The notes: generated by a model not told the origin, from the sequence alone. Counted from the first letter of the whole stretch, positions 1-63,399 are shown. The stretch is 63,399 bases of DNA, filler included, from Psammoneis japonica (GCA_008632985.1; 4 parts of 4 records of this genome joined end to end with filler, not necessarily neighbours in it); one strand, 5' to 3'. Translations and numbers: made by a program.

Positions 1-244
1 GGATGGCCAGCCTTGTCATGAGCACAGCTGTGCCAATTGTGGTTGTTCTGAATCTAAAAAAGGTGAGAAGAGAGATGTCTTGACAAATGTTTTCTTGACA
101 AATGTTTGAGATGTCTTCAACAATTTGTGGTCCAAAAGAGCCAAAATTTGGGGCCACAAAAATTGAACATTGATGAACAGGTGTTGTGGATGTTGTGAGG
201 TGTGAACAGATGTTGACAGTCACAAAGAAATGGGTGTCTTTTGA

Positions 245-2349
245 ATGAACAAAATGTTGCAGACTGCATCAAACGATTTCTCAATTGATGAGTGCTTTGT
301 CCTTCTTGGCATCTGGGTGACATGTCAAGTCCTTCATTTACAATGAACCACAATGGGATGTCTGTTGTGCCTCTGCATCATTGTGGATCATCCAATGGAC
401 CTTCTCTTCAATGTTGCCCATGTCATCCAGGGAACAGCAGGGTGTGCCATCTTGGCAGAGTCATTGGAGCCCCCTGCTGTCAGACATCAGTGCCCATTTC
501 AAGCTGGAAGCCACATCATTTTCTTCCAGGACAAGTGTCACTTTGCGCTCCAACTGCTCCAACATGGGAAATGTGGATAAAACCAAAGACATCCCATCAA
601 TGGCATTGTCAACCAATTCATCCATTGTGATCAGCTTTGCACAAACTGGGGAAGAGTTGGCATGACCATGCACAACACAACATTGTTCTGCAGCCAGACA
701 ACATTTTCAAACATCATTTTTGGGAAGAGTGGCAACTGTGTCAATGTTGTTGAGATGTGCAAAGACAGTCAGTTGGCCATGAAAGATGGCCACATTCTTT
801 TTTGCTTGCCAAGGAACACCCCTGCTAGAAACATCAAACAAATCGTTGCAATGCCTTCTTGAATTCAGCCTCCAAATGATTGGTTGCAAATGACCCCCCA
901 TTGAATCACATGAGGATCCTTGCACAAATTGCTCATGTTGTCCCAGCAAACTGCACTGGCTTGGTTGTTTCCATGATGCCTGGGGGGCAGTCACATGTTC
1001 CAGCTCTGATTCACTGATTTGTGCATGAAACTTGCTGAAATGGGGGACGCGGAGGTGACGGAGGTCTCTGTCTTCAGAGTTTGTTTTGCGACACATTCTC
1101 AACCTTGGCATTGTTTTGCTTGGAGCAACAGTGGAGGTCTGCCAAAGCTCTCTTGATGCTGTTGGTGTGTTTGTTGCTGGAGCAGTGACTGCATGGACAT
1201 TTCAACATCATGACAACAATGGCACAATGGCGCAGCATCCCCTTGGATGCAAACAAGGAAATCTCAAGTTCAGAGACATGAAACACACCATCCATTTCAA
1301 CAGATGTGCCAACCACAAACACCTGCCTCTCTTTTGCATTGTGCTCTTCTTCTGGCTGAAAAACAGTGAAGAACGATGGCTTGGCAGCTTTGATGGGAAT
1401 GGCAAATCTTTTGCGTTCCATTGCATTTTGGCATGCACCAACTGCCCATGTAAATCTGATGGTCATGAGCAAGCCAAGAAGTGACTGAGTGCCTTCCAAC
1501 AGCTGTGGCAAGGTGAGAAGATTCTCTGGTGGCTCAAGATTCCCCTGAATGACCTCAAGCAGTGTTTCTCTGTCAATCTGCATTGCAACACCCTGTTGGA
1601 CAGTGCCCAGCATCCTCAAATTGAGCAAGCCAAACATGACACCAGTCAACAACCCAGCAAAGACATGCACAAAAGAAGCAGTCAGTCCAAAGCAAAGTCC
1701 CAACATCACCCAAAGGCCCCGCAGAGCTGAGAGTTTGACAAAGAGACTTGTGCTGATGGCAGCAGCACATGGTGGGGCAGCGACACACCCCAGCCCAAAC
1801 AGAAGCACACAAACTTGTTGGCACACATGTTCATTCCTGGTGATGAAACAGCTGCAACAATGGGAACTTGCATGATGACAAGGATTGTCAAAAGACCAAA
1901 GACCAACCAACCACACCATGCTTGGCAGAATGGAATTCACACTTCCTGCTGCGCCTGCGCAGTCTGTCAAGCAGGGCTGCATGCAACCAGAGCAGCAGCA
2001 GCAGAGCAGCTGCTGTCGTGCAAAGCAAAGCCTCAATGGGCATGAAGTTCCATCAGTCAGGTTTCATTTCTGGTGGAGGTGCTTTTGATGTGGAAGGATG
2101 GTGATCACATTTGGCTTCAACTTCTTCTTTGTTGGGTTTCACGTCACATCTGGTGTGGAGCATGCCCCATTTCTGGGTCTGCTTGCTCGGATGCCACATC
2201 GGGTGCTGAATCAGAAACTGGTTTCTCTCCTGCCTGAGTTTTGTTGGCCGCTCCCTCAGCCATGTCCAAAGGAGGTGGCCCATTTTCAGTGGGCTCTTCC
2301 CGCACAGTGAGTGCGGCCGACCCCTCTTTCTTCCCTCACTCATTTTCAC
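245..2349 (-). pseudogene. Glycosyltransferase family 90 (CAP10-like) gene, disrupted and TpA-depleted
   Basis: Fragments in shifting frames resemble GT90 motifs: PIIWRLNSRRH..VPWQAKKNVAIFHGQLT (707-1111), LEENDVASSLKWALMSDS (461-673), then PLDDMGNIEEKVHWMIHNDAEAQ and DL.HPDAKKD near 250-430. There are several stops and frameshifts. The extent upstream of ~1130 is uncertain. Confidence 0.7.
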
Positions 2350-2599
2350 TGTTGCTTGTTCTTGAGCTTGAGGACAGAAAAGAGCAAAACGGAGCGGTTG
2401 GGAATGGGTTCATTGTCACAGTGAAGTCGTTTGCACAGGAAGCACATGACAAAAAGAACACTCTCCTGAACGACTGCTTTCTGCTCTGACATCCACACCT
2501 CGAAATGCTCGAGCAGTCGAAAGTCGAAATCCAAAAATCAAAAAAGAAAGTCATCGAGTCGTCCAAGTCGATTGAATCCGCCCAAAAAGCACGTGGTGC

Positions 2600-2781
2600 C
2601 AAGCAAATCTGGATGGAGGGCCATGTCATAATTGGTGATTGGTTGAGATGTGTGGATCGAGTGGTGCTGCAGCGACACGCTCACAATCTAATCAGGTTTG
2701 GGTTCGCATTGACAGTGTCACCACTTTCTATTTAGACTTAAGGTGTCGTGCTTGTTCTTTCGTTGCATCGAGATTTATTCG
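2600..2781 (+). repeat. 5' LTR
   Basis: Colinear with 9238-9419; ends form an imperfect inverted repeat (caagcaaatct...agatttattcg). Confidence 0.9.
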
Positions 2782-3241
2782 CTTTGTCAGAGCTAAGACG
2801 AAAAAGACAGAGCGAAATGGTTTCGAGTGCAATTCGTCATGGACGATTGTTTGTTGCGTTGTTTGCATGGAACGTGCAGCTGTAGAAACAGCACTGAACT
2901 GTGCGTGATGCATCAGAATTCGGATTGATGCACACGATGATGCGTCTCGTGTCGCTTGTTGTGATGTCCACAAAAACAGCTTGCAATGGCAACACTCGCA
3001 AAGACAGTCACTGTCCTCACATGTGTGATGGGTGTGAAGGGACTGCGGCATTGGGCGACATGCCCGAGCGTGTGCTCAACAATGTCGGTTGACATGAACG
3101 ACACAGGACTGATCACCCTGATGTCGGGTGGCTGTGTGAACCCGTTGTCACAACACAGAGAAAGTGTGGCCATCATGACCATGCAGACTCACAGCTGCAT
3201 GTTCCCGGTGCGGGACCTTTGCACCCTTTCTCTGTTGCAGG

Positions 3242-4786
3242 ATGGCAGCAGCGGCAGCACCAGCAGCAGCACTTGCAGCGTCAGCCGCGGCAGCTGACGT
3301 TGACGCAGTCTCACAAGTTTGTGGTGTTGCTGACCAGAACGCAAGGGCGAGGTTGGTCTTCTGTGAAGGGTTCACGACTTTGGAAAACATCGCAGTGATG
3401 GAGAGTGATCACGATGTGGAAGACATGGCGCAGAGGGCGTCTCGTCGCATGGTGGCCGACGGACGTGTGACTCTTGGGACCACTCAGATCAAGAACTTGC
3501 AGGCGCCAGCATGGTGGTGCCAGGATTTGCTCAAACGGAATCAGCCATTGGTTGTGGCAGACTTTAATGTGGCAGCTGTGGCTGCAGCCCGGAATGGCAG
3601 GCGCATCGAAAAGGAGCGCACAGATTGGGACGCGTCGGCAAGCGGTCTTGTAAAGTTCAAGCCCGATGACTTCGATGTGTGCAAAGATGCTTTCTTGAAT
3701 CTCTTGGCACAGAAATTTGGCGTGTTGAAAGAACCCCTTCGCTGTGTTGCAAGGACAATGCCAGCTCCGGCTGCATTCACGGATGCTCAACAACAGCGTG
3801 TGCACCAGATGCCATTGAATGGCGCCGCATGTGATGAGGACAACTGCAGCGTTTGCCGCATGTTGAAGGAATGCTTGGTCGACACGGCAGGGTGGGCATG
3901 GATCGAACCGTTTGATGCGACAGAAGACGGACGTGGAGCATTCAACGCATGGGTTGACCATTGCAATGGACAGGGCGAGTTGAGCAAGCGCATCCATCTG
4001 GCTACAGCAACTGTTGAAACCTTGTTTTACAAAAAGGAAGCATCGCTCCCATTCGAAAAGTTCAATGAGAAACTTGCCAGTGCTTTCGCTGCTTTGAACA
4101 AATCACCGGACGACCGCAAATCTGAACGACAGAAAGTTGACATTCTTCTAAAAGGGATCCGAACGGATGACACTCGTCTCATTGCAGCAACGGCTGTCAT
4201 TGGCAGTCAGCACCCTCGTGACTTCGCGGGGGCATGTGCTCATTTCTCATCCGAAGTCTCTCGTTTGCATGCAGGTGCTCAGTTGGAAGCCCGGCATTGC
4301 TCGAAGCGCAAGATTTCTGAAATGAGCCATGGTGGCGGCGGTGGCCGCGGTTTTTATCGAGGTCGCGGTCACGGAGGAAGATTTGGACGTGGGGGTGGAT
4401 GCGGACGTGGTGGTGGCCGTCAAGGCAGAGGTGGCGACCACACTACGATGATCAATGAAGTCGATGCATCCGACCCTGCAAGGAGCTTTAGCGCTCAAGA
4501 ATGGGAAAAGTTGCAGTGTAATGGAGGCATGAGCTGCGTGTTCCAAGCTCGCGAACGAATGGGTCATGGACGCAGTGGTGGCCGTGGGTCTCCCGCAGGT
4601 CGACAAGGACGCGATGGGGGCGGCAGGCATGCAGCTGAAGCCCAAGTCTGTCAAGATGGCCAAGGCCAAACCCAACAACAGGATCAGGAGCAAAGGAGTG
4701 GCAGGCGTGGTCGCGGTGCTGACCGGGATCGCGGTGGACACAATGGACGCGCCTTCGGTCGGGGAGCCTGCAATGGTTCCACCTGA
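3242..4786 (+). CDS. gag: Copia Gag-like protein with RGG-rich C-terminus (mutated)
   Basis: 514-aa ATG-started ORF between the 5' LTR and pol; DGRGAF motif and Gly/Arg-rich tail; only 2 Tyr. Confidence 0.8.
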   Translation: MAAAAAPAAALAASAAAADVDAVSQVCGVADQNARARLVFCEGFTTLENIAVMESDHDVEDMAQRASRRMVADGRVTLGTTQIKNLQAPAWWCQDLLKRNQPLVVADFNVAAVAAARNGRRIEKERTDWDASASGLVKFKPDDFDVCKDAFLNLLAQKFGVLKEPLRCVARTMPAPAAFTDAQQQRVHQMPLNGAACDEDNCSVCRMLKECLVDTAGWAWIEPFDATEDGRGAFNAWVDHCNGQGELSKRIHLATATVETLFYKKEASLPFEKFNEKLASAFAALNKSPDDRKSERQKVDILLKGIRTDDTRLIAATAVIGSQHPRDFAGACAHFSSEVSRLHAGAQLEARHCSKRKISEMSHGGGGGRGFYRGRGHGGRFGRGGGCGRGGGRQGRGGDHTTMINEVDASDPARSFSAQEWEKLQCNGGMSCVFQARERMGHGRSGGRGSPAGRQGRDGGGRHAAEAQVCQDGQGQTQQQDQEQRSGRRGRGADRDRGGHNGRAFGRGACNGST

Positions 4787-7700
4787 CTCCTTGGGGTGGC
4801 AACAGCTGCTGGAGTGTTGGCGCATTTGGCACACTTGTCGTTTTTGCTTGTGTTGCTCTTCTTGCTGTTGACCAAACCCCACCCAATGTCTCGTTTCAAA
4901 GGAAAGGCGACAAAGAGGCACATTGCCGTGACATCAAAACGTGTGATCCGATTGACGAGTTCTGCACAGATGACAAATTTGACGACACCTGGGTTTGTCG
5001 CTTGAAATGAATGTGATGCTCACGCGGACACTTGTTGCGCTGGGGCGAACTGGAAGCTCATGGAGATGACAAATGAAGTGTGCAAGGTGCATCCATTTCT
5101 GGACTCTCATGAGCCGATCAAACAGATTCCTGTGGCACGTTGTTGCACCGCATGGACAGATCCGGAAACGACTCGTGAATGTTCACTGGTTGGTGATCAA
5201 ATGCTCTGGTTTGGGACCGACATGGAACACTCACTTTTGAATCCTAACCAACTCCGTGCGCACAACATGCCCATGCACGACAACCCTTGCGACACCCGAA
5301 ACGGATTTGGCATTGAAGCTGACGAAGCTTTCATCCCTTTCAATGCCATGGGGACAATTGTGTCTTTCAAGTCTCGTGTTCCGACGGATTGGGAAGTGCA
5401 GAACTTGCCGGTCATGCTGTTGACAGGTGACACATGGGATCCAGCACAGATGGACATGGGCTTGCCGGAGCGCACTAGAGAGCAGGCGGAGATGTGTGCC
5501 ATTCGATCATTGACCTCTGGCATGCGACAAGAACAGGTCTCGGAATTGAGGAGCGAGAAGGCAAAGTCCCAAGCAGCACGCTGGGGCGAAGTCGAAATGC
5601 AACTGTCGTCCATGTCCCCCATCTGTCAACTTCAATCGTTTTGCGACAGGCTCATCAGCTCAGTGAACGTGGCTTGCACATGTCGCGACGACGTGGACAA
5701 GAGGCAGAGGGCAGTCAAAGATTTGTGTGGTGAGGATCGGCACTCGAAGGTTGACGCTGAAGAGCTGGCCCAAAAATGGAATGTCGGTTTAGAAATGGCA
5801 AAAGACACTCTCAATGTAACAACTCAGCGCGGTGTACGAACGGCGACCCAGCCGATGTCACGAAGAGTGAGGGTGGATCATCTTGACTTGCATCGGAAGC
5901 GTCTGAAAGGAACATGGTTTGTGGACACTTTGATGTCCAAGGTGAAGTCTTTGCTTGGCAACACGTGTGCCAATGTTTGTGCTCAGGGCAAATTCGTGAA
6001 GGTCGTGCCGATGACCGCCAGGTCGGAGGCAGGTTTGTCTCTTGTTGAATTCACAGACGACGTGGGTGTGCCAGAATGTCTCATGTCGGACGGGGCAGGA
6101 GAGTTCACAGGAAGGAGCACCGAATTTGTGAGACACGCACGATGCATGAGAGTGCAACCAAGAACATCAGAGCAGGGTCGGAAGAACCAGAACCAGGCAG
6201 CGGAGCTCGAAATTGGTTTCTTGGCCAAACGTTGGCGGCTGCGGATGACGAAGAAGAAGGCATCAAAGCGACTGTGGGATTTTGGTCTTGTTTGCGAGTC
6301 GGAATTAGTGTCGTGCATGGCAAGAGGCAGGGACAAGAGGACTGGACATGAAGAGGTCACTGGGCAGACACCAGAGACAGGCGAGCATTTGGATTTTGGT
6401 TTCTGCGATGTGGTGTGGTGGTGGGACAGGCCCAACAAGCCGAGTGCAACTGACGATCCTCGAAGGCTTGGACGGTGGCTTGGCATCTCACACAAAGTTG
6501 GCTCGGACATGTGCCATTGGATCATTGCGGAAAGCGGGAAGATTGTCTCCAAAACATCAGTCGAGCACGTGACACAGGCTGATGTGGTGCAACCGGATGT
6601 TCGCGTTGAGGTCGACAACTTTAATGAGCAGCTGGAGAAGCGATTGGACGATGCCAACTTTGTCTTAAAAGGCGATGAAGCTGTGCCCGCATTCGTGTTG
6701 GATGATCTTGCAATTGATGGCAACCTCGGTGTGGAACATGAGGGCAGCATCACGCCAGAGGACGAGGAATGTGGCAACATGCCATCACCCGACGAGCGAC
6801 CAGATGACGACGACGAGCAGGCAATCGATCAACACCTGGGAATGGAGCTCATGTTTGACATCGGAGCCGACGGCGAGCGATGTGGTGTTGTAACGAAACG
6901 TGCAAGAGGACAAGATGGGCGTCCAATTGGGACTCGGCATCAAAACCCATTGTTTGACACTCGCGAGTGCGAAGTGGAACACACCGACGGAACCACAGAT
7001 GAGCACACAGCCAATGTCATTGCCGAGAACATGTTTGCTCAGGTCGACAGCGAGGGCAACCAGCATTCTATCTTACACGAGATGCAGGACCATGAGAGGA
7101 GTGACAATGCGGTGTCGATTGCTGACGGCACCGTACGAACCGCTGACGGGAAGGAGAAGAAGAAGATCACAACAAAAGGATGGAAGTCATTGGTCGGATG
7201 GAAGGATGGCAGCTCATCTTGGGTCAAACTCAAAGATCTAAAGGACTCCAACCCCATTGAAGTTGCTGAGTGTGCTGTTGCGAACAGGTTGACGGAGGAA
7301 CCTGCTTTTGCTTGGTGGGTCACACATGTCCCACGCAAACGGAATCGCATTGCATCCAAGGTCAAGAAGAAGCACTGGCGCACGACTCACAAGTTTGGGA
7401 CCCGATCACCCAAGTCCACGGAGGACGCTTTGCGGATTGATCAGGAAACGGGGACAGATTGTTGGGCTTGTGCAATCAACAAGGAGATGGCAAAGGCAAA
7501 GGTGGCATGGCACGAGCACGAAGCTGAAACCCCTCAAGTCGTCCAGGAAGGTGAGAGTGCAACTTTGCGTGGTCATCAGGAGATCAGGTGCCACATGGCA
7601 TTCGACATTAAAATGGATTTCACCAGAAAGGCAAGGTTTGTAGCTGGCGGACACACGACAGAGGCCCCGGCATCGATCACTTGCTCTGGCGTGGTTTCCA

Positions 7701-9073
7701 GAGACAGTGTGCGACTTGGATTCTTGTCAGCAGCCTTGAATGGTGTCGATGTTGCAGCGATTGATCTGGAGAATGCTTGTCTCAATGCACCGTGCGCAGA
7801 AAAGACATGGTTTGAAGGCGGAAAGGAATGCGGCGAGCACGAAGGAAAGGCACTTGTTGTTGCTCGGGCGTCACATGGCTTGAAGAGCTCGGGATGCTCT
7901 TGGAGGTCTGCACTGTCATCGGTCTTGCGTGACTTGGGCTTCGAATTGACGAGAGCAGACCCAGATGTCCACTTGTGTGCGGCGACTCGTGAGGATGGGC
8001 ACGAGCATTGTGAAATGCTTTTGGTTTGTGTCAATGATGTGCCAATCATTTCCCATCAAGGGAAGTCCACTGTCACTGCAATGGGTGAACACTGTGCCGT
8101 GAAGCCCGGCAGTGAAGGAGAACCAGAAGTTTGTCTTGGAGCCAACGTTGAGAAGGTTCAGACTCAGGATGGGCACACAATCTGGGCGAGTTCACCGAGG
8201 TCATGTGTCAAATCGGCGATTGAGACTGTGGAAGGCCTGTTGGATGAAGACGGCAATGGAGAGTTTCTGAAGAACAGTGCAAAGGATCCACCACCCCCGA
8301 AGCACAAACCGGAACTGGGCGTGATGGACGAGTTAGGCCCCGACTTGGTGGACAGGCATTTGCAGTTGACAGGGATTTGTCGTTGGGCGATCGAGTTGGG
8401 TCGCATCGATGTCTTGCATGAGGTTTCAATCCTGTCTCAACATCAAGCTAATCCAAGGAAAGGACATCTTGAGGCATTGCATCATGTGTTTGCGTGTGTG
8501 AAGAAACACCAGAACATTGAACGCATCGGATTTGATCCAAAGGAGCCGGTGATTGATGAATCTATTTTCAATTCGAACGCAGACTGGACCGAGTTTTACG
8601 GGGACGTTGAGGAGGAACTGCCGCCACGGGCACCAAAGCCTCGTGGTGATCCGGAAAACATCTGTGCATTTGTTGACGCCAACCATGCAGGGAATGGCGC
8701 GCCAGTGGCATGGTTCAGCAAGCGGCAGAACACGGTGGAATCGGCAATGTTTGGAAGTGAATTGGTTGCGATGCGGATTTGCAAGGAATTGATCGTTGCT
8801 TTGCGTCACAAGCTTCGCATGTTTGGGGTTCCCCTTGAAGGACCGGCAAGTGTCTTTTGTGACAATCACGGTGTTGCAAAGAATGCAAGTGTGCCCGAGT
8901 CGGTTTTGCACAAGAAGCATGATGCCATCAACTGCCATGTTGTGCGAGAAGCGGTCGCAGCGGGAATTGTTCGTGTTGGCAAGGAGGATGCGGAAACGAA
9001 CTTGGCCGATCTACTTACGAAGGTGGTTGCAGGAGAGCGGCGATGGAAGCTTTGCTCGTGTGTTTTTTGGCAA
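4787..9073 (+). pseudogene. pol: Copia Pol (protease, integrase, RT, RNase H), inactivated
   Basis: ECDAHADTCCAG protease motif just after an in-frame TGA (5003-5005); integrase SDGAGEF/EIG; RT RKARFVAGGH with CVND in place of YVDD; RNase H FVDANHAG..FCDN..NLADLLTK with a short in-frame deletion near 8695. The probable original stop (9071-9073) now reads CAA. Confidence 0.92.
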
Positions 9074-9237
9074 TGTCCCGACACCAAGGCCAGGCACCTG
9101 TGGCTCGCGCCCACATGTCGTGGCCTCCCAAGCCAGCATGTCTGGAGGTTTAATTTGGGTTCTTGTGGTTTGCCTCTCTGTGAGAGGATGTCACATGTTC
9201 AGACGAATTGGCACTGTCATTGCCGTTTCGCGGGGAC

Positions 9238-9419
9238 CGAGCAAATCTGGATGGAGGGCTGTGTCACAATTGGTGATTGGTCAAGATGTGTGGATCGAGT
9301 GGTGCTGCAGCGACACGCTCACAATCTAATCAGGTTTAGGTTCACATTGACAGTGTCACTGCTTTCTGTTTAGACTTAAGGTGTCGTGCTTGTTCTTTCG
9401 TTGCATCGAGATTTATTCA
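9238..9419 (+). repeat. 3' LTR
   Basis: Colinear with 2600-2781 (cgagcaaatct...agatttattca). Confidence 0.9.
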
Positions 9420-9567
9420 GTGCGGCAGTTCCACAACAACTCTTGAACTTGAACTCCGCAAAACAGAATTTGGATTTTCGATTTCCGATGCCAGAACCCA
9501 CAGAAGAACCAGATGCGACAGTTTGTCATTGATGCAGCTTCATCGCATTCATTCGCTTGTTGAAATC

Positions 9568-11037
9568 ATGGCAGAGGCTGCAGCATCAGCTGCCGCAAAT
9601 TTGGTGGCGTCAAGAGCCGTTGACGCTGCAAAACAATCGATTCTCGCACAAAACGTGGATCAATGCAATGAAGATGACGTAAAGGCAGCAATTCTCAGCG
9701 AACTCGAGCAAATCAAGGAAGACATGGATGTCCTTCGTAGTGCAGACTTTCGTGCGGCTCGCGATGAGCTCCAACATTGGCATGCATCAAGTGAACCCAT
9801 TGAGAGTGAACTTCAAAAGGAGCGTCTTCGGTCCGCTCGTCACAGTTCCGTGCGCGCCTTTAACACTGTCCCGGATCCCCAGGATAAGATCTCGGCAGCC
9901 TTTTTCGTGATTTTCTGTAATTGTCATCTCGTGGCTCTTGGTGACGACAAGAATGCAGAGCCAAATTGGCTTGCTGGAAAGCGAGAAGCGCAGAGTCTGC
10001 TACGACAGTATTTCTTCCAGTCTTGTGTCACGCTTAACTACGCAGTCTATGACCTTGTTCCTCGCAGTGAGAACGGCAACCACCCCACATTTCCAGAGGA
10101 CGCGGAGAAAGCTGCACTCCAGCTGCTTTCGTCCAAAACGTTGCAAATGGGTGTGGTCAGCCCAAAAATATCCCATTTGCTTTCGGAGCCTCTGTTGTGG
10201 TCAACTCTAAGAGGGCACACGGATTGGATCTTTTGCTGCACTGTGTTTGCCAATGACACTCGAGCCCTGAGCGTAAGTGACGACCAAACGCTCAAAGTGT
10301 GGGACTTGTCCAATGGAAACGAACTGCTTACACTCAAAGGGCACACGGATAGGGTCTATTGCTGCACTGTGTTTGCCAATGGTACTCGAGCCCTGAGCGG
10401 AAGTGACGACCAAACGCTCAAAGTTTGGGACTTGTCCAATGGAAACGAACTGTTTACACTCAAAGGGCACAGGGATTGTGTCGGATGCTGCACTGTGTTT
10501 GCCAATGACACTCGAGCCCTGAGCGTAAGTGGTGACCGAACGCTCAAAGTGTGGGACTTGTCCAATGGAAACGAAGTGTTGACACTCTATGGGCATGCGG
10601 GTTGGGTCGGATGCTGCACTGTGTTTGCCAATGACACTCGAGCCCTGAGCGCAAGTGACGACCAAACGCTCAAAGTTTGGGATTTGTCCAATGGAAACGA
10701 ACTGCTTACACTCAAAGGGCACACAGATTATGTCAGATGCTGCACTGTGTTTGCCAATGACACTCGAGCCCTGAGTGGAAGTGACGACCTGACGCTCAAA
10801 GTGTGGGATTTGTCCAATGGAAACGAACTGTTTACACTCAAAGGGCACATGGATTATGTCAGATGTTGCACTGTGTTTGCCAATGACACTCGGGCCCTGA
10901 GCGCAAGTGGCGACAAGACGCTCAAAGTGTGGGCGTTGCCACTCACGATGACGAAAGAAAAGTCGCGTACGCTGTGGCCAAAGAGTGGAAGGACCGATTG
11001 TTGTTCGTTCTTTTCTGCTGTAATGCTGATACGTTGA
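9568..11037 (+). CDS. WD40-repeat protein with an unassigned N-terminal domain and six near-identical repeats
   Basis: Uninterrupted ORF from ATG 9568; repeats of LKGH.D.V.CCTVFANDTRALS.SDDQTLKVWDL. Confidence 0.85.
   Translation: MAEAAASAAANLVASRAVDAAKQSILAQNVDQCNEDDVKAAILSELEQIKEDMDVLRSADFRAARDELQHWHASSEPIESELQKERLRSARHSSVRAFNTVPDPQDKISAAFFVIFCNCHLVALGDDKNAEPNWLAGKREAQSLLRQYFFQSCVTLNYAVYDLVPRSENGNHPTFPEDAEKAALQLLSSKTLQMGVVSPKISHLLSEPLLWSTLRGHTDWIFCCTVFANDTRALSVSDDQTLKVWDLSNGNELLTLKGHTDRVYCCTVFANGTRALSGSDDQTLKVWDLSNGNELFTLKGHRDCVGCCTVFANDTRALSVSGDRTLKVWDLSNGNEVLTLYGHAGWVGCCTVFANDTRALSASDDQTLKVWDLSNGNELLTLKGHTDYVRCCTVFANDTRALSGSDDLTLKVWDLSNGNELFTLKGHMDYVRCCTVFANDTRALSASGDKTLKVWALPLTMTKEKSRTLWPKSGRTDCCSFFSAVMLIR
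10204..10935 (+). repeat. Tandem 126-bp WD40-coding repeat, ~6 units
   Basis: Unit starts at 10204, 10330, 10456, 10582, 10708 and 10834. Confidence 0.95.
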
Positions 11038-12592: not shown

Positions 12593-12976
12593 ATAGCCAC
12601 AGTTATGAGGTCAAAGATGCGCAAATGTAACATCGCGTTCATGCATGCAATCCAATCTGCGGCTGGGAACTTAAGCTGGTCAACAAGACGACTCACGCTC
12701 CGAAGTACCTGATAGGAGGCACCGTACTCATACCCGAGCCGTTTTCGATCCGGATGAAAGTTCTGGCCTTCAACAAAGATTGCAGCTTGTTCTTGGGAAG
12801 GAACATTGGAAAGGCTTGCCGTCGATGCGGCCGGCTACACTCGAGCATTCGCGTGCCGTATTTTTCCATCTTCATCCCACAGTTCGCAGGTGGTGCCAGC
12901 CTTGCAAAGTCGCAAAGTCACAGCCTCAGCGAACGGAGCTATCACAAGTGCTGTGTGGATCCGGAAGTATAGAATC

Positions 12977-23749: not shown

Positions 23750-23760
23750 TAAGCCATGTG

Positions 23761-51532: not shown

Positions 51533-51632
51533 NNNNNNNNNNNNNNNNNNNNNNNNNNNNNNNNNNNNNNNNNNNNTTAATTAATTAANNNNNNNNNNNN
51601 NNNNNNNNNNNNNNNNNNNNNNNNNNNNNNNN
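51533..51632. other. Artificial contig linker
   Basis: N...TTAATTAATTAA...N. Confidence 0.95.
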
Positions 51633-53097: not shown

Positions 53098-56000
53098 TCA
53101 AAGAAAACAAACATGTCTTTTCAAGGAAAACAAAAATGTCTTTTCAAGGAAAACAAACATGTCGTTTCAAGGAAAACAAACATGTCTTTTCAGAGAAAAC
53201 AAACGAAAGGAAGGATGGGACTGCATCCTGGGTTCCTCTCAAGGATTTGAAGTCAAAGAAAACAAACATGTCTTTTCAAGGAAAACAAACGTGTCATTTC
53301 AAGGAAAACAAATGTGCGGTTTCAAGGAAAACAAACACATGGTTTCAAGGAAAACAAACATGTCTTTTCAAGGAAAACAAACGTGTTGTTTCAAGGAAAA
53401 CAAATGTGTGTTTTCAAGGAAAACAAACACGTGGTTTCCAGGAAAGCAAACACGTTGTTTCATGGAAAACAAGCATGTCTTTTCAAAGAAAACAAACATG
53501 TTTTTTCAAGGAAAACAAACGTGTCTTTTCAAGGAAAACAAATGTGTCGTTTCAAGGAAAACAAACATGTCTTTTCAAGGAAAACAAACATGTTTTTTCA
53601 AGGAAAACAAACATGTCTTTTCAAGGAAAACAAATGTGTTGTTTCAGGGAAAACAAACATGTGGTTTCAGAGAAAACAAACATGTCTTTTCAAGGAAAAC
53701 AAACATGTCGTTTCAAGAAAAACAAACATGTCGTTTCAAAGAAAACAAACATGTCTTTTCAAGGAAAACAAACGTGTCTTTTCAAGGAAAACAAACGTGT
53801 CGTTTCAGGGAAAACAAACATGTCGTTTGCAGACAAACATGTTGTTTCAAAGAAAACAAACACATCTTTTCAATGAAAACAAACGTGTCGTTTCAAGAAA
53901 AACAAACGTGTCGTTTCAAGGAATGCCAACACATCTTTTCAGAGAAAACCAAGGTGTCATTTCAAGAAAAACAAACATGTGGTTTCAAGGAAAACAAACA
54001 TGTCTTTTCAAAGAAAACAAACATGTCTTTTCAAGGAAAACAAAAATGTCTTTTCAAGGAAAACAAACATGTCGTTTCAAGGAAAACAAACACGTCTTTT
54101 CAGAGAAAACAAACGTGTCATTTCAAGAAAAAAAAACATGTCTTTTCAAGGAAAACAAACACGTTGTTTCAAGGAAAACAAACATGTGGTTTCAAGGAAA
54201 ACAAACATGTGGTTTCAAAGAAAACAAACATGTCTTTTCAAGGAAAACAAGCATGTCTTTGCAAGGAAAACAAACATGTCTTGAAAACAAACATGTCTTT
54301 TCAAGGAAAACAAACATGTCATTTCAAGGAAAACAAACATGTTGCTTCAAGGGAAAAAATGTCTTTTCAAGGAAAACAAACATGTCTTTTCAAGGAAAAC
54401 AAACATGTTGTTTCAAGGAAAACAAAAGTGTCATTTCAGGGAAAACACACATGTGGTTTCAAGGAAAACAAACGTGTCTTTTCAGGGAAAACAAACATGT
54501 CTTTCAAGAAAACAAACATGTGTTTCAAAGAAAACAAACATGTCTTTTCAAGGAAAGCAAACATGTCATTTCAAGGAAAACAACCATGTCGTTTCAAGGA
54601 AAACAAACATGTGTTTTCAAGAAAAACAAACACGTGATTTCAAGGAAAACAAACATGTTGTTTCACGGAAAACAAGCATGTCTTTTCAATGAAAACGAGC
54701 ATGTCTTTTCAAGAAAAACAAACGTGTCCTTTCAAGGAAAACAAACGTGTCATTTCAAGGAAAACAAACATGTGGTTTCAAGGAAAACAAACATGTGGTT
54801 TCAAGGAAAACAAACATGTCATTTCAGGGAAAAAAAACACGTCATTTCACGGAAAACAAGCGTGTCTTTTCAAAGAAAACAAACACCTTGTTTCAAAGAA
54901 AACAGACATGTTGTTTCAAAGTCACCTCAACAAACATGTCGTTTCAAAGAAAACAAACATGTCTTTTCAAAAAAAACAAACATGTCGTTTCAAGGAAAAC
55001 AAACATGTCTTTTCAAGGAAAACAAATGTGACATTTCAAGGAAAACAAACATGTTTTTTCAAAGAAACAAATCATGTCTTTTCAAGGAAAACAAACGTGT
55101 CATTTCAAGGAAAACAAACATGTCTTTTTAAGGAAAACAAACGCGTTTTTTCAAAGAAAACAAACATGTCTTTTCAAGGAAAACAAATGTGTTGTTTCAG
55201 GGAAAACAAACATGTGGTTTCAGAGAAAACAAACATGTCTTTTCAAGGAAAACAAACATGTTGTTTCAAGAAAAACAAATGTGTCGTTTCAAAGAAAACA
55301 AACATGTCTTTCAAGGAAAACAAACGTGTCTTTTCAAGGAAAACAAACATGTCGTTTCAGGGAAAACAAACATGTCGTTTAAAGACAAACATGTTGTTTC
55401 AAAGAAAACAAACACATCTTTTCAAGGAAAACATGCGTGTCGTTTCAAGAAAAACACGACACCCCTCGCCAGTTTGACCCCAACAGCGCACACTCTGTTG
55501 TTTTCCCTGACTTGAAAATCAGGGTGCTTTTGTGCGCGCAAGGTGAGTTGAGTGCCAGAGCGGGACTTGGGCCTGTCTGCAGAGAAGACTTCAATGTCAA
55601 GGTCAAACAAACATGTCTTGAAGACAAACATGTCTTTTCAAGGAAAACAAACATGTCATTTCAAGGAAAACAAACCTGTCGCTTCAAGGGAAAAAAATGT
55701 CTTTTCAAGGAAAACAAATGCGGCGTTTCAAGGAAAACAAACATGTGGTTTCAATGAAAACAACCATGTCTTTTCTGGGAAAACAAGTGTGTCGTTTCAA
55801 GGAAAACAAACACGTCTTTTCAAGGAAAACAAACATTTCGTTTCAAGGAAAACAAACATGTCTTTTCAAGGAAAACAAACATGTGTTTTCAAGAAAAACA
55901 AACACGCTGTTTCAGGGAAAACAAACATGTCATTTCAAGGAAAACAAACGTGTTGTTTCAAGGAAAACAAGCGTGTCTTTTCAAGGAAAACAAGCGTGCC

Positions 56001-57330
56001 ATGCCCACCATCACATCGGCGCTGCAACACCAACAGAGCCACATCAGGAAAACAAACATGTCATTTCAGGGAAAAAAAACACGTCATTTCACGGAAAACA
56101 AGCGTGTCTTTTCAAAGAAAACAAACACCTTGTTTCAAAGAAAACAGACATGTTGTTTCAAAGTCACCTCAACAAACATGTCGTTTCAAAGAAAACAAAC
56201 ATGTCTTTTCAAAAAAAACAAACATGTCGTTTCAAGGAAAACAAACATGTCTTTTCAAGGAAAACAAATGTGACATTTCAAGGAAAACAAACATGTTTTT
56301 TCAAGGAAACAAATCATGTCTTTTCAAGGAAAACAAACATGTCATTTCAAGGAAAACAAACATGTCTTTTCAAGGAAAACAAACATGTCTTTTCAGAGAA
56401 AACAAGCACGTCGTTTCAAGGAAAACAAATGCATCGTTTCAAGGAAAACAAACATGTCTTTTCAGAGAAAACAAACATGTCTTTTCAAGAAAAACAAACA
56501 TGTTCAAATGTGGGTGCAGCTGAAGCACAAAACAACTCATCTTGTGTGGCCCACAAACTCTTGGCGGTGGTGGGTTTTGACCGCCAGACATCAAACAAGG
56601 AGTTGCTCAATTGTGGGCGCTGCTCAAGCATTCCAGAGGCACCACACACCTTCATCTGGGAGAGGGTCAACCCCACAAATTGCTGCACATTGCAGTCTCA
56701 TGGATCCAACTGCACTTGGGGACAGGCGCAAGCTTCTTGCGGGGCACAGATGCTGTTCTCCTGCACATGCAATCCTGTTGGTTTGCTTCTGTCAGTGCGC
56801 TCTTGCGCAGAATTCAAGGCACACTCATGTTGTTTCAAGAAAAACAAACACGTCATTTCAAAAAAAATGTCATGGGAAAACAAGCGTGTCTTTTGAAGGA
56901 AAACAAACGCGTCGTTTCAAAAAAAACAAACATGTTGCTTCAAAGTCATCTCAACAAACATGTCGTTTCAAGGAAAACAAACATGTCTTTTCAAGGAAAA
57001 CAAACGTGTGTTTTCAAGGAAAACAAACATGTGGTTTCAAGGAAAACAAACACGTGGTTTCAAGGAGAACAAACATGTCGTTTCAAGGAAAACAAGCGTG
57101 TCTTTTCAAGGAAAACAATTGCATCTTTTCAAGGAAAACAAACGTGTCGTTTCAGGGAAAACAAACATGTGGTTTCAAGGAAAACAAACATGTCTTTTCA
57201 AGGAAAACAAACATGTGTTTTCAAGAAAAACAAACACGCTGTTTCAGGGAAAACAAACATGTCGTTTCAAGGAAAACAAACGTGTTGTTTCAAGGAAAAC
57301 AAGCGTGTCTTTTCAAGGAAAACAAGCGTG
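53098..57330 (+). repeat. 23-bp tandem satellite (aaggaaaacaaacatgtcttttc), interrupted by TE fragments; more units at 62180-62237
   Basis: 23-nt spacing (e.g. tcaagg at 53345, 53368, 53391); higher-order duplication of ~54805-55110 at ~56046-56350. Confidence 0.95.
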
Positions 57331-57639: not shown

Positions 57640-60600
57640 CTCTTCCCTTGTCATTTGTTGCTCAACACCCAAACCTCTGCACGCGCACTGGCTCATGTTC
57701 TTTTCTTGCGTCAGAGTTCATTGAGATTGCCGCTGAAGTTGCGCGAGAGAGTCAGAAACACCGTGAAGAAGAAAGAGATGCTTGGATTGCAGAACTCGAG
57801 CCAGAATGCACGAAACAGTCGAAGGCGAAAGCCCGAATGCTGTGAAACCAATGCTGCGCCGAAGAAACCAAGTGAGTCTTTCAGAAAATCAACGCGTGCA
57901 AAAAGTCAGAAGACTCCAGCGTACGAACTGTTCAAATTCCAGCAGATCCTCGAGATGATCCAAAGACATGTGAGAATTGGACGACGACAGACACTCCAGA
58001 CGACGTCGAATCTGCACTTCAGCACCGCAATCAACGCCATTTCGGGCAGGCACACGGAACTCCTCCCACGGTTCCTGTCTTGTCAGTGGATCTCGGATGT
58101 GAAGGAGATGCCATCATGGCTGACCTGATCTCAGACAGTGAGTGCAAAACGGAACAACTGAGCCGGGCTGCATCATTGCTGATCCAGCATCTCCGACGAC
58201 GCACACCCCCAGCAGTTCCTGGCGCCCTTTCTCCTGAAGCCCTGCAGTCAAAGATTGCATTGTGGTCTGAATCTACCTCTGCATCATTGAAATCGGGGAT
58301 TAATTTGGGGCACTGGAAAGCTGTGCATGCTCCTCATTCTCATGCATCTGATTACGATGACGACGGGAATCCATCCAAGCGGAAAGAACTGCTGGATTTG
58401 GCTCAACAGACTCTTGTGCCAGTGCGGCTCAACTTGATCAATTGCACTCTGAAGTGGGGCTGCTCGCACGAACAGTGGAAAGACATTGTGAATGTGATGA
58501 TTTTCAAAGAACCAGGCAACAACAAGATTCACAGATTGCGAGTGATTCATGTTTACGAGGCAGATTTCCAATTGATTGCAAGCGTCAAGTGGCAAGAGTT
58601 GGCTCAACATGTGGAGCACCATCGCATGTGCAACCCAGGGATCTACGGATGCAGATCATTCCTCTCCGCTCAAACACCAGTGTTTCTTGAAAATCCAATG
58701 ATGGAGATTTCACGCGCATCCAGGAAGACTTCGCCAACCAGCGACGATGATTGCACTTCTTGCCATGACAGGAACATTCCAGCAATTGTCAGATTGTGTG
58801 CGAAGAGCAATGGCATGCACGAAAGAGCAGTCAAAGTCAACATGGCGACTTTGCATCATGCGCGCCACTGGTTGCGCACTCTTCTGGGACTTGCCCAACG
58901 ACGTTGTTCTCATTCCTCTGAGTGTCCTTTGTGTGGAACAGGACAAGGCAGTGGAAATTCTCCCTGGCACTGGAACACTCTGTGCAGCAGACTCTTTGAT
59001 GTTTTCGACGCAGAAGCTGTCGGATCACATTTCGAAACCCCGGACGGACAGTTTTGCATTTGAGTTTTCAACCGAGGACATGTCGACAACACTTCCAAGC
59101 AAGTGAACGACTTTAGAGCCAGCCCTCAGCCTTCTGCTTTCGAGTTGTCTCAATCTCTACAATCGGACAACCAGTTGTGGTGTGATCCACTGGATGCAGC
59201 CGGGCACAAACCAGAATTGCCAAAATGTTCTTTCCATGCCATCGAGCGGGACTTCACGGAATGTGGCGAACCATGCATCCACCCCCATCAAAGTGGAAAT
59301 CTTTTCTGCAGATCGTTCTGCTTCCAGGCGCAGCACACAATTGTCTGCATGTGCGCCTCACAAAACCTTGGGACACTGCATGGCTCCGACAGGCACACAG
59401 AAGACTCAACTGAAGAAGTTGCTCCACAAGAGCGATGCAGTTTCCCCATTTCTCCAATCATGTCCTTTGGACAGAAGAGAAACATGGCGGCGCCATTGTG
59501 CTTGTCATTTGTCTTTGATGACATGCGTGCTGGCAAATTCAAACTTCCTCCCCAAAGAACTCCAACAGGTCCAACAGAAGGCCATGCGGACGATTTTTGC
59601 CAAATGCGGACACAACAGGAACACCAAACAAGCAATCTTGTGTGGACTGCAATCCCTCGTAGGAGGCGGGTTTCGATCACCAGACGTCAAGCAAGGAGTG
59701 GCCCAACTGCAACAATTGTTGAAGCACTCGAGAGGGGTCAAACACTTGCAGCTCGGGGAGGTCCAACCGCACAAGCTTCTTCACATCGCCGCAGTGTGGA
59801 TCCAACTGAACTTGGGAACTGGTGAGAGTTTCTTGTGGGACGTCGACACCGCATTGCCTCATGTGGAATCTAGATGGCTCGCATCTGTTGGGCTGTTTTT
59901 ACAGCAGATCAAAGGCCGGGTGTTTCTGCGCCACAACGGGGTCCTTCCACTTCAACGAGACAATGACCAGTGCTTGATGGATGCTGCTTTGCATTCCCAG
60001 TCCTTTGCCGCGCGAGAGATCTGGTGGCCAAACTGTTGCCGTCTGCACCTGAAAGTCTTGTCTGTTTCAGATGTTGCTCTGTCGGATGGAATGACGCTGG
60101 ATGGGTCAAAAGCACAAGGGGAACCGTCATTGCAGAGCAGTGTTGGTGCACTCAACAACATCGAGCAGTGCAAGCCATGCCAGCGAGCACGGAAAGTCTG
60201 GAAGAAATTTTGTTCAGCCCTGTGCCATCCGAAGTCACTGCGCTTGAAGGAACCCCCAGGAGATTGGCTTCTGCCACCATCCCAGATGAGAGTGCAGTCA
60301 ACTGCACGCTTTTCTCCATCCAAGGAACACTTGCATGTGCGCTCTCCAACCGGTTGTGACACATTTCAAGCAAACAGGACCATTGCTGATTCTGTCAGAG
60401 AGATGAAGACTGCACCACATCCTTCCGATTCTTCTTGTCCAGTTGAGGTGTCTGCCATCAAGGACGGACGATGGCATTTCGAGATCCCGCGCACTTCATC
60501 AACCGCTTTCCACTCTCCGACCACTCCAGATTCCTTTCTGTCGCATCTTCAGGGACTCGACAAGTGGGAATCTGTGCCATTTGAAGACTTGGTCTTTCAT

Positions 60601-61690
60601 GTTTCTCCACGAACAGTGGTTTGACACTTTCTTTCGTCTCATCTCACCGCAGGCAGTGATGGATCGGTCCAAGAAGGAGCCACCTTTGGGTGGACCATTG
60701 CCATGGATGGTGCACCACCAGTGGATTGTTGCAGGGCCAGTTTTTGGGAAGACTCCGTCCTCTCACCACGCAGAAGCTTGCGGCATTCCATCCATTGCAA
60801 GATTCATCTGCTGGCTGTGCAAATGCTGCCGCGTTGCCGTTCCTTTGGATGCAGTGATTCATTGCGATGACAAAGCACTGGTTGACTGTTTGTCTGAATT
60901 GACTCCCATCCTGCCGGTGAGTGATCTCGAGAACGACGCATGCGAACAACACGACTTTCACATTCGCTGCCATGGGGCCAACGCTGTCGCTCCGGATTGG
61001 GACATTTTGAATGAGATCCTCCACACCCAGCAAGCTTTGACGCAACTGTCGGATGCAGCCAATCTTGCTCTGCCTCCAGTGCGATGGGCAAAAGGACATC
61101 AAGACAGGCAATCTCCCATCCACTCATTGCCATCAAATGCCAGAGTTAACATCCGAGCGGACAAATTGGCAGGAGCTTGCCAAGGACATTGCCTGCACAA
61201 CACGAATCAGGTCAAGCACCTGCCACATTGCCACTTGCATCTGGAGATCAATGGGGGTGCAATCACGACGAATTGCAAGAAACAAATTCGGTGCGCTGCT
61301 GCTGCTCCTGAATTGATGCAACATGTTGTCGAACGGAACAAATGGGATCCTTCAGTGGTTGACCTTGTCGACTGGAATGCTCACGCAGTTCTGGTGAAAT
61401 GTCACTCACAACAGCATGTTGACACAGTCAAACTGGTCCATGACTTGCTGCCGACTGACAAGATTGCAAATCAACACAACCCAGTTCGACTGCACCAATG
61501 CATCACATGTGAGCATCCGATGGAAGACAGGGGCCACATGCTTTGGTGTCCAAACAACGAACAGTGGAGAAGGAAGTTCCTGCAGGGTCTTTGATGCTGC
61601 TGCAACAAGATCGACGCTGTGCCTGCTCTCCGAGACTTCCTCCTGGACATGCTTCAAGCCTGGTTTGATGACGAAATGACGTGCTTCGAC
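57640..61690 (+). mobile_element. Non-LTR retrotransposon (Ambal-like) RT and RNase H, degenerate
   Basis: SGINLGHWKA, VMIFKEPGNNKIHRLRVIHVYEADF, DCTSCHDR, GTGQGSGNSP; RNase H SDGS, AEACG, HCDDKAL, PDWDIL, WAKGHQD, NIRADKLA; stops and frameshifts. Confidence 0.85.
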
Positions 61691-62893
61691 AATGTGGACT
61701 GTCGATGCAAGGAACTTTGGTGAGCTCAATTGGATGTTGGTTGGAGACAGGTTTTCAACGGCAGATGCTCGCACATGTGGAATCTTTTGCAATCCGGACA
61801 CCTGCGCGATTCTGGCATTCTACGACAATGTCAGGAAGAAAACAAACAGCCACCAGATTGGACGGTTCAGATCGGGTCTTTCAATGTGTTTGTCTTCAAC
61901 ATCAAACAAACGGCCAAGTTTGTGGCACAATCATGCCTCTTGCCACTCAACGTTTTTGCAAATGCACCTGCCCTGCACGATTCTTAAGACATTGTAGAAT
62001 CGCGCTGTAACAAAAAATGTCAAAAGTTGTTGGATGGATTGCTCAACAAGTGCACCGTAAAATGACACAAAATGTCAAAAAAATCACGTAGAAATCTACG
62101 TGCGCGACATGCGACGTGATTCAAAAAACTGTCGATGTCACAGTTCAGCAGTGCGAGGTCCCACCTGGACCTGGAACGCGTCAAACATGTCGTTTAAAGA
62201 AAACAAACATGTTGTTTTCAAAGAAAACAAACGTGTCNNNNNNNNNNNNNNNNNNNNNNNNNNNNNNNNNNNNNNNNNNNNNNNNNNNNNNNNNNNNNNN
62301 NNNNNNNNNNNNNNNNNNNNNNNNNNNNNNNNNNNNNNNNNNNNNNNNNNNNNNNNNNNNNNNNNNNNNNNNNNNNNNNNNNNNNNNNNNNNNNNNNNNN
62401 NNNNNNNNNNNNNNNNNNNNNNNNNNNNNNNNNNNNNNNNNNNNNNNNNNNNNNNNNNNNNNNNNNNNNNNNNNNNNNNNNNNNNNNNNNNNNNNNNNNN
62501 NNNNNNNNNNNNNNNNNNNNNNNNNNNNNNNNNNNNNNNNNNNNNNNNNNNNNNNNNNNNNNNNNNNNNNNNNNNNNNNNNNNNNNNNNNNNNNNNNNNN
62601 NNNNNNNNNNNNNNNNNNNNNNNNNNNNNNNNNNNNNNNNNNNNNNNNNNNNNNNNNNNNNNNNNNNNNNNNNNNNNNNNNNNNNNNNNNNNNNNNNNNN
62701 NNNNNNNNNNNNNNNNNNNNNNNNNNNNNNNNNNNNNNNNNNNNNNNNNNNNNNNNNNNNNNNNNNNNNNNNNNNNNNNNNNNNNNNNNNNNNNNNNNNN
62801 NNNNNNNNNNNNNNNNNNNNNNNNNNNNNNNNNNNNNNNNNNNNNNNNNNNNNNNNNNNNNNNNNNNNNNNNNNNNNNNNNNNNNNNNNNNNN

Positions 62894-63399
62894 CTGGTTG
62901 CACTCATCATTGTCAGCTGTCCACCGGACTTTGACGGTCCTTGGCACACACTGACGCATGCGCGCTCTTCCTCCTTTTGCGCCATGGCATCAGCAGAAGG
63001 TTCCCATCCAAGGGATGGCATCAGCTCCAGCCGGGGGAGGTTCTCCATGTCCTCCTGAGTCAGCTCGTGTGAGTCAAAGACCAAAGCAACACCTTGCGCA
63101 CGCAAGTGCACCCTGATTTTCAAGTCAAGGAAAACAACAGAGTGCGCGCTGTTGGGATCAAACTGGCGAGGGGTGTCGTGGACAGTCAGCTCACTTGCTC
63201 ACAGTTGGCTGGGGCACAGCAGGGTGTCAGTCATTCTTTCCCTGAAAAACACAGCCTCGTGGGCTGGCAGTGGGCGTGGCTGTCCATTGGCTGGATCAAC
63301 CCACATGGCAGCAGCCACGCAAATGGGACATTCCTCATTGGCACACACTCTTCGGAGCAAGGATGCACTGCAGCCCGAGACTTCAGGCAGTGTTGAAGA
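62894..63399 (-). mobile_element. Copia pol N-terminal (protease-proximal) fragment
   Basis: DTPRQFDPNSAHS.. and LPRLEL...WEP resemble the corresponding part of the first element; a related piece lies inside the satellite at ~55455-55560. Confidence 0.65.

Follow-up and report, generated by a model that had tools for sequence, protein, structure and literature searches.

Loss of TpA from Transposon-Rich Blocks Around a Gene Island of Psammoneis japonica Points to a Regional Mutation Process in DNA

In a 63,399-nucleotide stretch of DNA from Psammoneis japonica (GCA_008632985.1), called the window below, the dinucleotide TA (TpA) occurs only 744 times, with an observed/expected ratio (o/e) of 0.19. 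The deficit lies in transposon-rich blocks on both sides of an island of ordinary genes, and it raises the question of whether TA was never present in these blocks or was removed from them, and, if removed, by what process. An earlier note, made from the sequence alone, had proposed a regional hypermutation that erases TpA. The explanation that we favor as a whole, and consider slightly better than an even bet, is that a process of the same kind as in the chlorarachniophyte Bigelowiella natans has been at work. It would be a mutation at the DNA level, after insertion, acting only on TpA in the transposon-rich blocks (from 1 to about 9.4–11 kb and from 24 to 63.4 kb) and equally likely to yield TpG or CpA. 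It would proceed far above the background rate, with about 90% or more of TpA gone and the adjoining gene island untouched.

Results

TA Is Depleted in Two Blocks with Different Borders

The window is a scaffold whose contigs are joined at 27112–27211, 47313–47412 and 51533–51632 by a linker consisting of 44 N, the sequence TTAATTAATTAA and another 44 N. The central sequence is artificial and carries a stop in every one of the six frames; its TAs need masking before any dinucleotide count. In windows of 1.5 kb, TA o/e is 0.00–0.13 in 1–9000 and 24001–61500 versus 0.48–0.74 in 10501–24000, and the o/e of TG and CA reaches 1.4–2.1 where TA is depleted. This sliding-window check, made within the window, bears out the depletion described earlier. 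The depleted domain in total (42,307 nt, satellite and linkers excluded) contains 162 TA versus 1,484 expected at the o/e of the island, which corresponds to 0.06 versus 0.57. The TA o/e does not exceed 0.12 in any of the 17 annotated depleted pieces and is 0.59 in the core of the island; the exception among the ordinary genes is an ORF (open reading frame) with WD40 repeats, at 0.25. The depletion is far beyond chance.

The left depleted domain (1–9236) comprises an old repeat flank (1–2598; TA o/e 0.03, CpG o/e 0.24) and most of a copia retrotransposon, copia 1 (2781–9236; 0.09 and 0.86, respectively). The island with ordinary TA extends over 11019–23990. Its right border is abrupt (23993–24186): dense TA ends at 23993, no further TA occurs before 24186, the number of TA per 100 bp drops from 3–10 to 0–1, and the o/e in 400-bp windows falls from 0.60 to 0.12. 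The left border is gradual, with o/e of 0.07–0.44 in 400-bp windows over a graded zone (9419–11018) and normal values from 11019 onward. The TA-poor regions of the earlier note therefore stand as to the depletion itself but not as to their limits, which had been drawn at 9.6–9.7 and 23.8–24 kb.

Unrelated classes of sequence had been listed as affected. This holds for four copia fragments and for a pseudogene resembling eIF4A, but the LINE (long interspersed nuclear element) and the DNA transposase are leads from a protein language model only. ORF-wise Pfam scans of the depleted parts matched nothing but RVT_2 and DEAD/Helicase_C, and these parts also contain much unclassified sequence. As to MITEs (miniature inverted-repeat transposable elements), the sole clear MITE-like element is undepleted. 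The satellite was rejected as evidence of erasure, its 23-bp unit being without TA and uninformative on direction.

The loss is also visible in the stop codons. Per kb of strand, TAA is found 1.75 times in the depleted parts versus 8.9 times in the island and TAG 0.95 versus 9.4 times, with TGA at 22.3 versus 18.5. Because TAA and TAG have been lost (e.g., in 24001–52900), stop-to-stop ORFs are inflated in all six frames. Among the 95 ORFs of at least 150 aa, 84 lie in depleted parts, and 9 of those 84 span N runs.

Across the right border lies a small inverted-repeat unit (23770–24228), with TA retained in the left arm and CA or CG at the corresponding positions of the right arm.

Conserved Tyrosine Codons Show That TA Was Lost

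Low TA might be native to these sequences and kept so by selection, for example by a TA-cutting nuclease or by RNA decay sensitive to UpA. Mild under-representation of TA is indeed common, and the island itself has an o/e of 0.57. The direction of change was read from conserved tyrosine codons (TAY) of the copia elements by two methods.

In the first, the polyprotein of copia 1 (1,157 aa) was aligned by MAFFT with 33 homologues, namely those of at least 950 aa among the best-ranked 59 of the 150 listed in a full HMMER scan, and a column was taken as a Tyr column if at least 60% of the homologues had Tyr in it. In the 19 Tyr columns copia 1 has Tyr only once; Cys (TGY) replaces it in ten, His (CAY) in five, and Val, Trp and Met in one each. 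The other conserved columns were retained in 252 of 307 cases. Tyr amounts to 0.09% of the copia 1 protein versus 2.7–4.8% in each of the 33 homologues, and its content is normal in 148 of the 150 copia homologues listed. The catalytic motif of the reverse transcriptase (RT) reads CVND in copia 1 versus YVDD in the homologues.

The second method, tblastn with 15 homologues over the four copia fragments of the window, gave 43 conserved Tyr columns with one Tyr, 20 Cys (TGY), 19 His (CAY) and three other residues; ten other residue types were retained in 381 of 442 columns. By fragment, copia 1 kept one of 17 Tyr columns (9 Cys, 5 His), copia 2 none of 12 (7 His, 5 Cys) and copia 3 none of 13 (7 His, 5 Cys, 1 Phe), and the only Tyr column of copia 4 has Cys. 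The same picture is found outside the retrotransposons: in ten conserved Tyr columns the eIF4A-like pseudogene has two Tyr, four Cys, one His, one Trp (TGG), one TGA stop and one Arg. The earlier argument that Tyr codons read as Cys or His fix the direction as loss of TA is thus upheld, with 39 of the 42 lost copia Tyr columns being Cys or His.

A metagenome scan with the copia protein revealed a single locus (L001), which is 44% identical to the window copia and has a TA o/e of 0.85; it revealed no less-decayed copy of the same family. Since all 33 aligned homologues have normal Tyr and L001 has normal TA, the relatives are not natively free of TA, a condition that the earlier note had named as fatal to its proposal, and the change is TAY to TGY or CAY. 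In other words, TA was lost and not natively absent. Native avoidance is further contradicted by the state of the elements, which are dead and not adapted, with conserved catalytic Tyr replaced and the RT motif broken, and by the in-frame stops of the pseudogene; we give it next to no credence.

The remaining two of the 150 are copia RT fragments poor in Tyr and rich in Cys and His. P0335, with a single Tyr in 267 aa, was predicted from a JGI metagenome, and P0353, which has none, from a Logan assembly. Their identity to the window copias is 43–55%, and one of them reads HVDD at the RT motif. They may be erased elements of like kind in other samples.

TA Was Changed in DNA, After Insertion and on Both Strands

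The two long terminal repeats (LTRs) of a retrotransposon are identical at insertion. Copia 1 is a complete element, with both LTRs and gag-pol present, and its 5′ LTR (2599–2780, plus strand, 182 bp) is 94% identical to its 3′ LTR (9237–9418, plus strand), which is immediately preceded by a purine run. The pair differs at eight sites: three are TA versus TG or CA, three are TG versus CA, two are CG versus CA, and there are no others. All 11 mismatched bases are transitions. Nine of the 20 ancestral TA site-copies have changed, and no change outside TA and CpG was found in 2 × 182 bp. The three sites with TG versus CA are as expected if one ancestral TA was altered on opposite strands in the two LTRs. 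With six differences of the TA type, two of the CpG type and none of any other, the change took place in DNA, after insertion and on both strands. This agrees with the DNA-level process claimed earlier and with the enrichment of TpA that had been predicted for its spectrum.

The strand symmetry is also seen beyond the LTRs. Copia 1, on the plus strand, has Cys and His in a ratio of 9:5, copia 2 and copia 3, on the minus strand, have 5:7 each, and the overall ratio is 20:19. TG and CA were counted 3,413 and 3,520 times over 35 one-kb windows, without excess scatter (chi2 32.0, df 34), and no strand-coordinated runs were detected as TG/CA skew in these windows. The statement that A>G and T>C both occur on the same strand was therefore correct.

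These data bear on a rival source of A>G changes, the hyperediting of retroelement RNA from A to I by ADAR-like enzymes, fixed by reverse transcription into new insertions. The majority of the identified elements are retrotransposons, and ADARs prefer U before the edited A (10.64898/2026.01.13.699255). However, edits of sense RNA would yield only Tyr to Cys, and the observed Cys:His ratio together with the absence of TG/CA skew excludes sense-RNA editing followed by reverse transcription; it also argues against long single-strand runs. Moreover, the LTRs diverged at TA sites after insertion, and erasure extends to non-coding flanks and unclassified sequence, ending at chromosomal borders and not at the ends of elements. 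Being contradicted at each of these points, RNA editing keeps a very small probability.

Surviving TA Follows a Flank Rule

The 162 TAs that survive in the depleted domain were compared with the NTAN spectrum of the island. Their flanks are strongly biased (chi2 p 5e-16 versus the island and 9e-14 versus L001). The estimated survival of TA is 1.6% in RTAY, 8.3% with mixed flanks and 26% in YTAR; at the extremes, ATAT has no survivors, ATAC/GTAT 0.8% and TTAA 38%. RTAY was thus erased first, and YTAR, most of all TTAA, was spared. This rule explains the TAs kept in the LTRs of copia 1, each of which retains five or six: the four that are kept in both are CTAA, TTAG, TTAA and TTAT.

A Second, Slower Process of CpG Decay Acts in the Same Blocks

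Compared with the expectation from the island, the depleted domain lacks 1,322 TA and 882 CG and has 1,199 TG and 1,109 CA in excess, so that 2,204 dinucleotides lost stand against 2,308 gained. AA, AT and TT are little changed, which shows that the loss of TA is not part of an overall drive from AT to GC, as GC-biased gene conversion would produce; being contradicted by this balance, such a drive joins native avoidance among the least probable explanations.

Decay of CpG to TpG or CpA supplies about 880 of the roughly 2,300 extra TG and CA, that is, about two fifths. A second, separate process is therefore active in the same blocks, which is ordinary CpG decay and which leaves the loss of TA unexplained. 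The earlier note had set the decay of 5-methylcytosine (5mC) aside, and in this respect it needs correction. The CpG o/e in the erased blocks ranges from 0.24 to 0.88. In the young copia 1 the TA o/e is already 0.09 at a CpG o/e of 0.86, and older pieces have a CpG o/e of 0.24–0.38; judging by copia 1, CpG decay is much slower than the process acting on TA.

Two pairs of repeats in the depleted domain differ mostly by CpG-type changes. The arms of an inverted duplication (33233–36464, plus strand, and 39815–43128, minus strand; 96% identical) have 121 mismatches, 64 of the CpG type and two of the TA type, plus two TG/CA double differences. The scarcity of TA-type differences indicates that the arms were copied after TA had already been erased. 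Two direct repeat copies, both on the plus strand (30458–31653 and 46156–47312; 95% identical), have 56 mismatches, 24 of the CpG type and one of the TA type, plus five TG/CA double differences.

As a separate matter, GC (+343) and TT (+335) exceed the island expectation in the depleted domain, and GT and TC fall short of it by about 245 each. These deviations are explained neither by TA decay nor by CpG decay.

Erasure Probably Follows a Chromosomal Domain and Not Repetition as Such

The earlier note had suggested that the mutator might be targeted to repeats. Two repeated sequences of the island contradict this. The MITE-like element (22610–23753; 49-nt imperfect terminal inverted repeats) has a very high word depth in run X1, and its TA o/e is 0.70. 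A tandem duplicate (13509–14240 and 14243–14981, 93% alike), which adjoins an acyltransferase ORF, has not been erased either and shows an ordinary spectrum, with 19 transversions in 50 mismatches. Conversely, the segment at 24.4–26.4 kb is erased although its word depth in the contigs, which is not the same as copy number, resembles that of the island (44–51 versus 47–64). Repetition alone does not trigger erasure. We infer that erasure is directed at a domain of the chromosome; to judge from the CpG decay, this domain is probably silenced, with methylated cytosine.

The Depletion Is Unlikely to Stem from the Assembly

An apparent loss of TA might also result from errors of assembly or polishing, from miscalling at a modified base, or from a chimeric join of two organisms at repeats. 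Both borders do adjoin high-depth repeats, the scaffold was stitched from contigs with artificial linkers, and the runs that contain the stretch are all from one sample. Nevertheless, both borders of the island lie inside a single N-free contig (1–27111), so that they do not mark the place where two genomes were joined. In run X1, a contig matches 25849–26598 with no differences, and a contig of run X2 covers 24517–25877 with 50 differences; an erased copy and a second, different copy thus coexist. The similar word depths on both sides of the right border, which are not copy numbers, also speak against an artefact. The flank rule and the parallel CpG decay look biological, and copia fragments with little or no Tyr are present in two further public sets. 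Contradicted in this way, an artefact retains a very slight chance. The read support comes from one sample, with no second platform or strain.

The host was identified by protein searches. The pfkB kinase of the island has top matches of at most 57% identity, and all named members are diatoms (Seminavis, Fragilaria, Cylindrotheca, Nitzschia, Mayamaea and others); the named best matches of the eIF4A-like copy are likewise all diatoms. Neither search gave a near-identical match, which means that the proteins of the organism itself are absent from that collection. This protein evidence assigns the window to the nuclear genome of a diatom or of a very close relative, and not to Bigelowiella.

Discussion

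Which Base of TpA Is Damaged

As the leading mechanism, to which we would give a little under an even chance, we propose that adenine is deaminated at 5′-TA-3′ by an enzyme. Such an enzyme would act on silenced domains, in DNA that is double-stranded or opens for a short time, and would convert adenine to hypoxanthine; because hypoxanthine pairs with C, the result would be A>G on whichever strand was struck. Tyr codons and TA-containing signals would be destroyed in this way, and elements would die with their reading frames still open. A deaminase of the TadA/ADAT2 type would be a fitting candidate: in its natural tRNA substrate A34 follows U33.

A competing explanation, which we find improbable yet still well ahead of the other alternatives, places the damage at the T of TpA. 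Thymine modified in silenced chromatin, as 5-hydroxymethyluracil (hmU) or 5-formyluracil (fU) made by a dioxygenase of the TET/JBP type, or some other lesion of TpA, would mispair with G or be misrepaired and give T>C on either strand. For a palindromic site this predicts an identical pattern, with TG equal to CA. 5-Formyluracil favors T>C, and the hmU of dinoflagellates is found mainly at TpA. Tyr codons preceded by A have T>C outcomes in a ratio of 6:2 versus 13:18 elsewhere, a difference that is not significant in this small sample. Enzymes of the TET family can form hmU and fU from T in DNA, and a TpA carrying hmU on both strands has been discussed as a hazard (PMC11804724). On the other hand, our literature search found no link between diatoms and hmU, and glycosylases normally remove hmU and fU, leading to breaks or mixed outcomes and not to clean transitions. 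The authors of the study on B. natans favor adenine deamination, as a proposal only (10.64898/2026.01.13.699255).

Several points weigh against adenine deamination or against the explanation in general. A and T cannot be told apart as the damaged base by sequence, TpA being its own reverse complement. In the natural substrates of ADAT2/3, A34 is not known to be followed by U, and this agrees badly with a preference for TAT, provided that the flank rule signifies one. The ancestral TA content of the transposons was set at the island o/e, which is only a proxy. The inverted duplication has only two TA-type differences in 3.1 kb, which places the erasure of this piece before the copying and gives no sign of ongoing activity. 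Finally, the read support comes from one sample, which is possibly the source of the window's own assembly.

Relation to Known Mutation Processes

The earlier note knew of no described system of this kind. One is now in print: Mettrop et al. (bioRxiv 10.64898/2026.01.13.699255) report hypermutation of TpA to TpG or CpA in integrated viral DNA of B. natans. In their mutation-accumulation lines, two regions of integrated viral DNA received 231 of the 302 single-nucleotide mutations in the nucleus, and 230 of these 231 were A>G or T>C, all 230 at TpA. The reported rate was about 1000 times the background, with mutations in some lines only. The preprint further describes 324 TpA-poor coding sequences, in which domains of the reverse transcriptase and DDE types are enriched, as well as 124 clusters formed by depleted windows of 1 kb (cut-offs ≤0.43 for Rho TpA and ≥1.52 for Rho CpA+TpG), and its authors propose an ADAT2-like DNA adenine deaminase as a candidate.

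As described in that preprint, the process shares with the window its restriction to A>G/T>C changes and to TpA, its regional character, and the coupling of TpA loss to a gain of CpA and TpG. Most depleted pieces of the window pass the two cluster cut-offs. The window also has near-pure transitions confined to TpA, CpA+TpG coupling, and mobile DNA hit with ordinary genes spared. The differences are as follows. The host is a diatom, that is, a stramenopile, and B. natans is a rhizarian. In the window the targets comprise copia elements, one pseudogene and entire blocks of repeats, compared with giant-virus and virophage inserts in B. natans. The window is closer to saturation, with a TA o/e of 0.06 versus 0.45 for the insert of an NCLDV (nucleocytoplasmic large DNA virus) in B. 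natans. A flank rule and parallel CpG decay are found in the window, and the main text of the preprint makes no mention of flanks or context. Lastly, the mutations in B. natans were watched as they arose, whereas the window is known from its end state alone. The kind of process has therefore been published before. The window contributes a second and distant lineage, targets that are transposon blocks, erasure close to saturation, a flank rule, and CpG decay alongside the loss of TA.

Other known processes resemble the loss of TA in part. Repeat-induced point mutation (RIP) of fungi is likewise regional, transition-only and dinucleotide-specific; it is lethal to transposons, and the compositional scar that remains is sharply bounded. 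However, RIP changes C to T, mostly CpA to TpA, and so enriches TA, which the window has lost; it is also triggered by duplication, unlike in the window, where the 93%-identical duplicate has an ordinary spectrum and the high-depth MITE-like element keeps its TA. RIP was rejected as the process acting here, TA having been removed and not raised and the island duplicate not having been mutated in the manner of RIP. The decay of 5mC at CpG is similar in that a palindromic dinucleotide is lost to TG or CA on either strand in silenced DNA, but it cannot remove TA and is slower here. Its own trait is present, a deficit of 882 CG balanced by the gain of TG and CA. APOBEC3 (C>U in cDNA) and ADAR (A>I in double-stranded RNA) share with our proposal the use of deaminase hypermutation against mobile elements. 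Their substrate is RNA or a single strand of a replication intermediate, and the runs that they leave are strand-asymmetric, whereas the changes in the window are symmetric and post-integration. Editing of retroelement intermediates by ADAR or APOBEC enzymes was rejected on the Cys:His ratio of 20:19, the lack of skew and the post-insertion divergence of the LTRs.

Our literature searches, in a collection with few subscription journals, found no natural TpA-directed hypermutation besides that of B. natans and none for diatoms. A term search of a paper on mutation accumulation in a diatom (PMC6604790) gave no occurrence of TpA, hypermut- or transposable.

Significance

In the literature covered, no natural process of targeted A:T to G:C mutation in DNA was known before 2026, and then only from the single rhizarian preprint. 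The same scar, close to saturation in the transposon blocks of a diatom, would mean that the process is more than a peculiarity of a single species. It would be of ancient origin or would have arisen repeatedly among major marine phytoplankton, which points to a widespread genome defence. The search for the enzyme would become comparative, being directed at genes shared by diatoms and Bigelowiella, and also genetic if a transformable diatom has the scar. The flank rule, with ATAT erased and TTAA spared, provides a biochemical fingerprint for candidate enzymes, and a natural adenine editor of duplex DNA, if true, would be of interest to base-editing technology. At the same time the scar is a hazard for gene callers: it produces long false ORFs, and Tyr-less "proteins" are already present in public protein sets.

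It can be speculated, although we think it rather unlikely, that diatoms and chlorarachniophytes share one inherited, chromatin-guided DNA-editing defence that is common to the whole SAR (stramenopile, alveolate and rhizarian) group or older. An adenine deaminase that reads RTAY on duplex DNA in silenced domains would erase TpA to saturation and kill elements with their frames open. The same enzyme might deaminate cytosine or methylcytosine at CpG; this would account for the loss of both palindromic dinucleotides to TG and CA in the same blocks.

Other Features of the Window

In copia 1 the gag-pol gene (4949–9094, plus strand) was recognized by Pfam RVT_2 and by tblastn to residues 4–1343 of P0241; the frame is open, and the element, as judged from its coding sequence, is dead. 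Next to the sharp border lies the eIF4A-like DEAD-box pseudogene (24325–25900, minus strand), with Pfam matches to DEAD (2e-40) and Helicase_C (7e-31) and with in-frame stops. Three further copia fragments were found by tblastn: copia 2 (37284–39528, minus strand), copia 3 (49918–51522, minus strand; also Pfam RVT_2) and copia 4 (51634–53151, plus strand), an integrase part that runs into the satellite. The 23-bp satellite (53049–57325, plus strand; TRF) forms two arrays with about 160 units in all; its TA o/e is 0.00, and the variation among units is of the CG/TG/CA, i.e., CpG, type.

Two possible remnants are leads only, from comparison by a protein language model (Atlas). The first, a possible DNA transposase of the Plavaka type (43979–45238, minus strand; TA o/e 0.04), had a high Atlas score, with 30 of 30 Atlas matches in one family; the Pfam Plavaka match was below the cut-off (E 0.15), and a sequence search gave no homologue. 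The second, a possible non-LTR reverse transcriptase of the RVT_1 type (59107–60621, plus strand), also had a high Atlas score, with 173 shared features, and had no Pfam match.

Within the island (11019–23990), minus-strand genes for an acyltransferase, a pfkB kinase and a topoisomerase were recognized by Pfam. Contigs of run X2 skip stretches of 93 and 96 bases with CT..AC ends in island genes. Scans of the window for tRNA genes and against Rfam gave no matches.

The graded zone at the left border (9419–11018) is occupied by the WD40-repeat ORF (9340–11037, plus strand), which was recognized by Pfam WD40 and contains 5.7 tandem units of 126 bp. Its TA o/e of 0.25 is intermediate between the depleted domain and the island, and this low value may reflect leakage of the mutation or merely a TA-poor unit. 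The units are 89% alike, with the variable positions clustered at unit bases 6–21, a pattern that we take to resemble the hypervariable WD40 arrays of NLR-type proteins.

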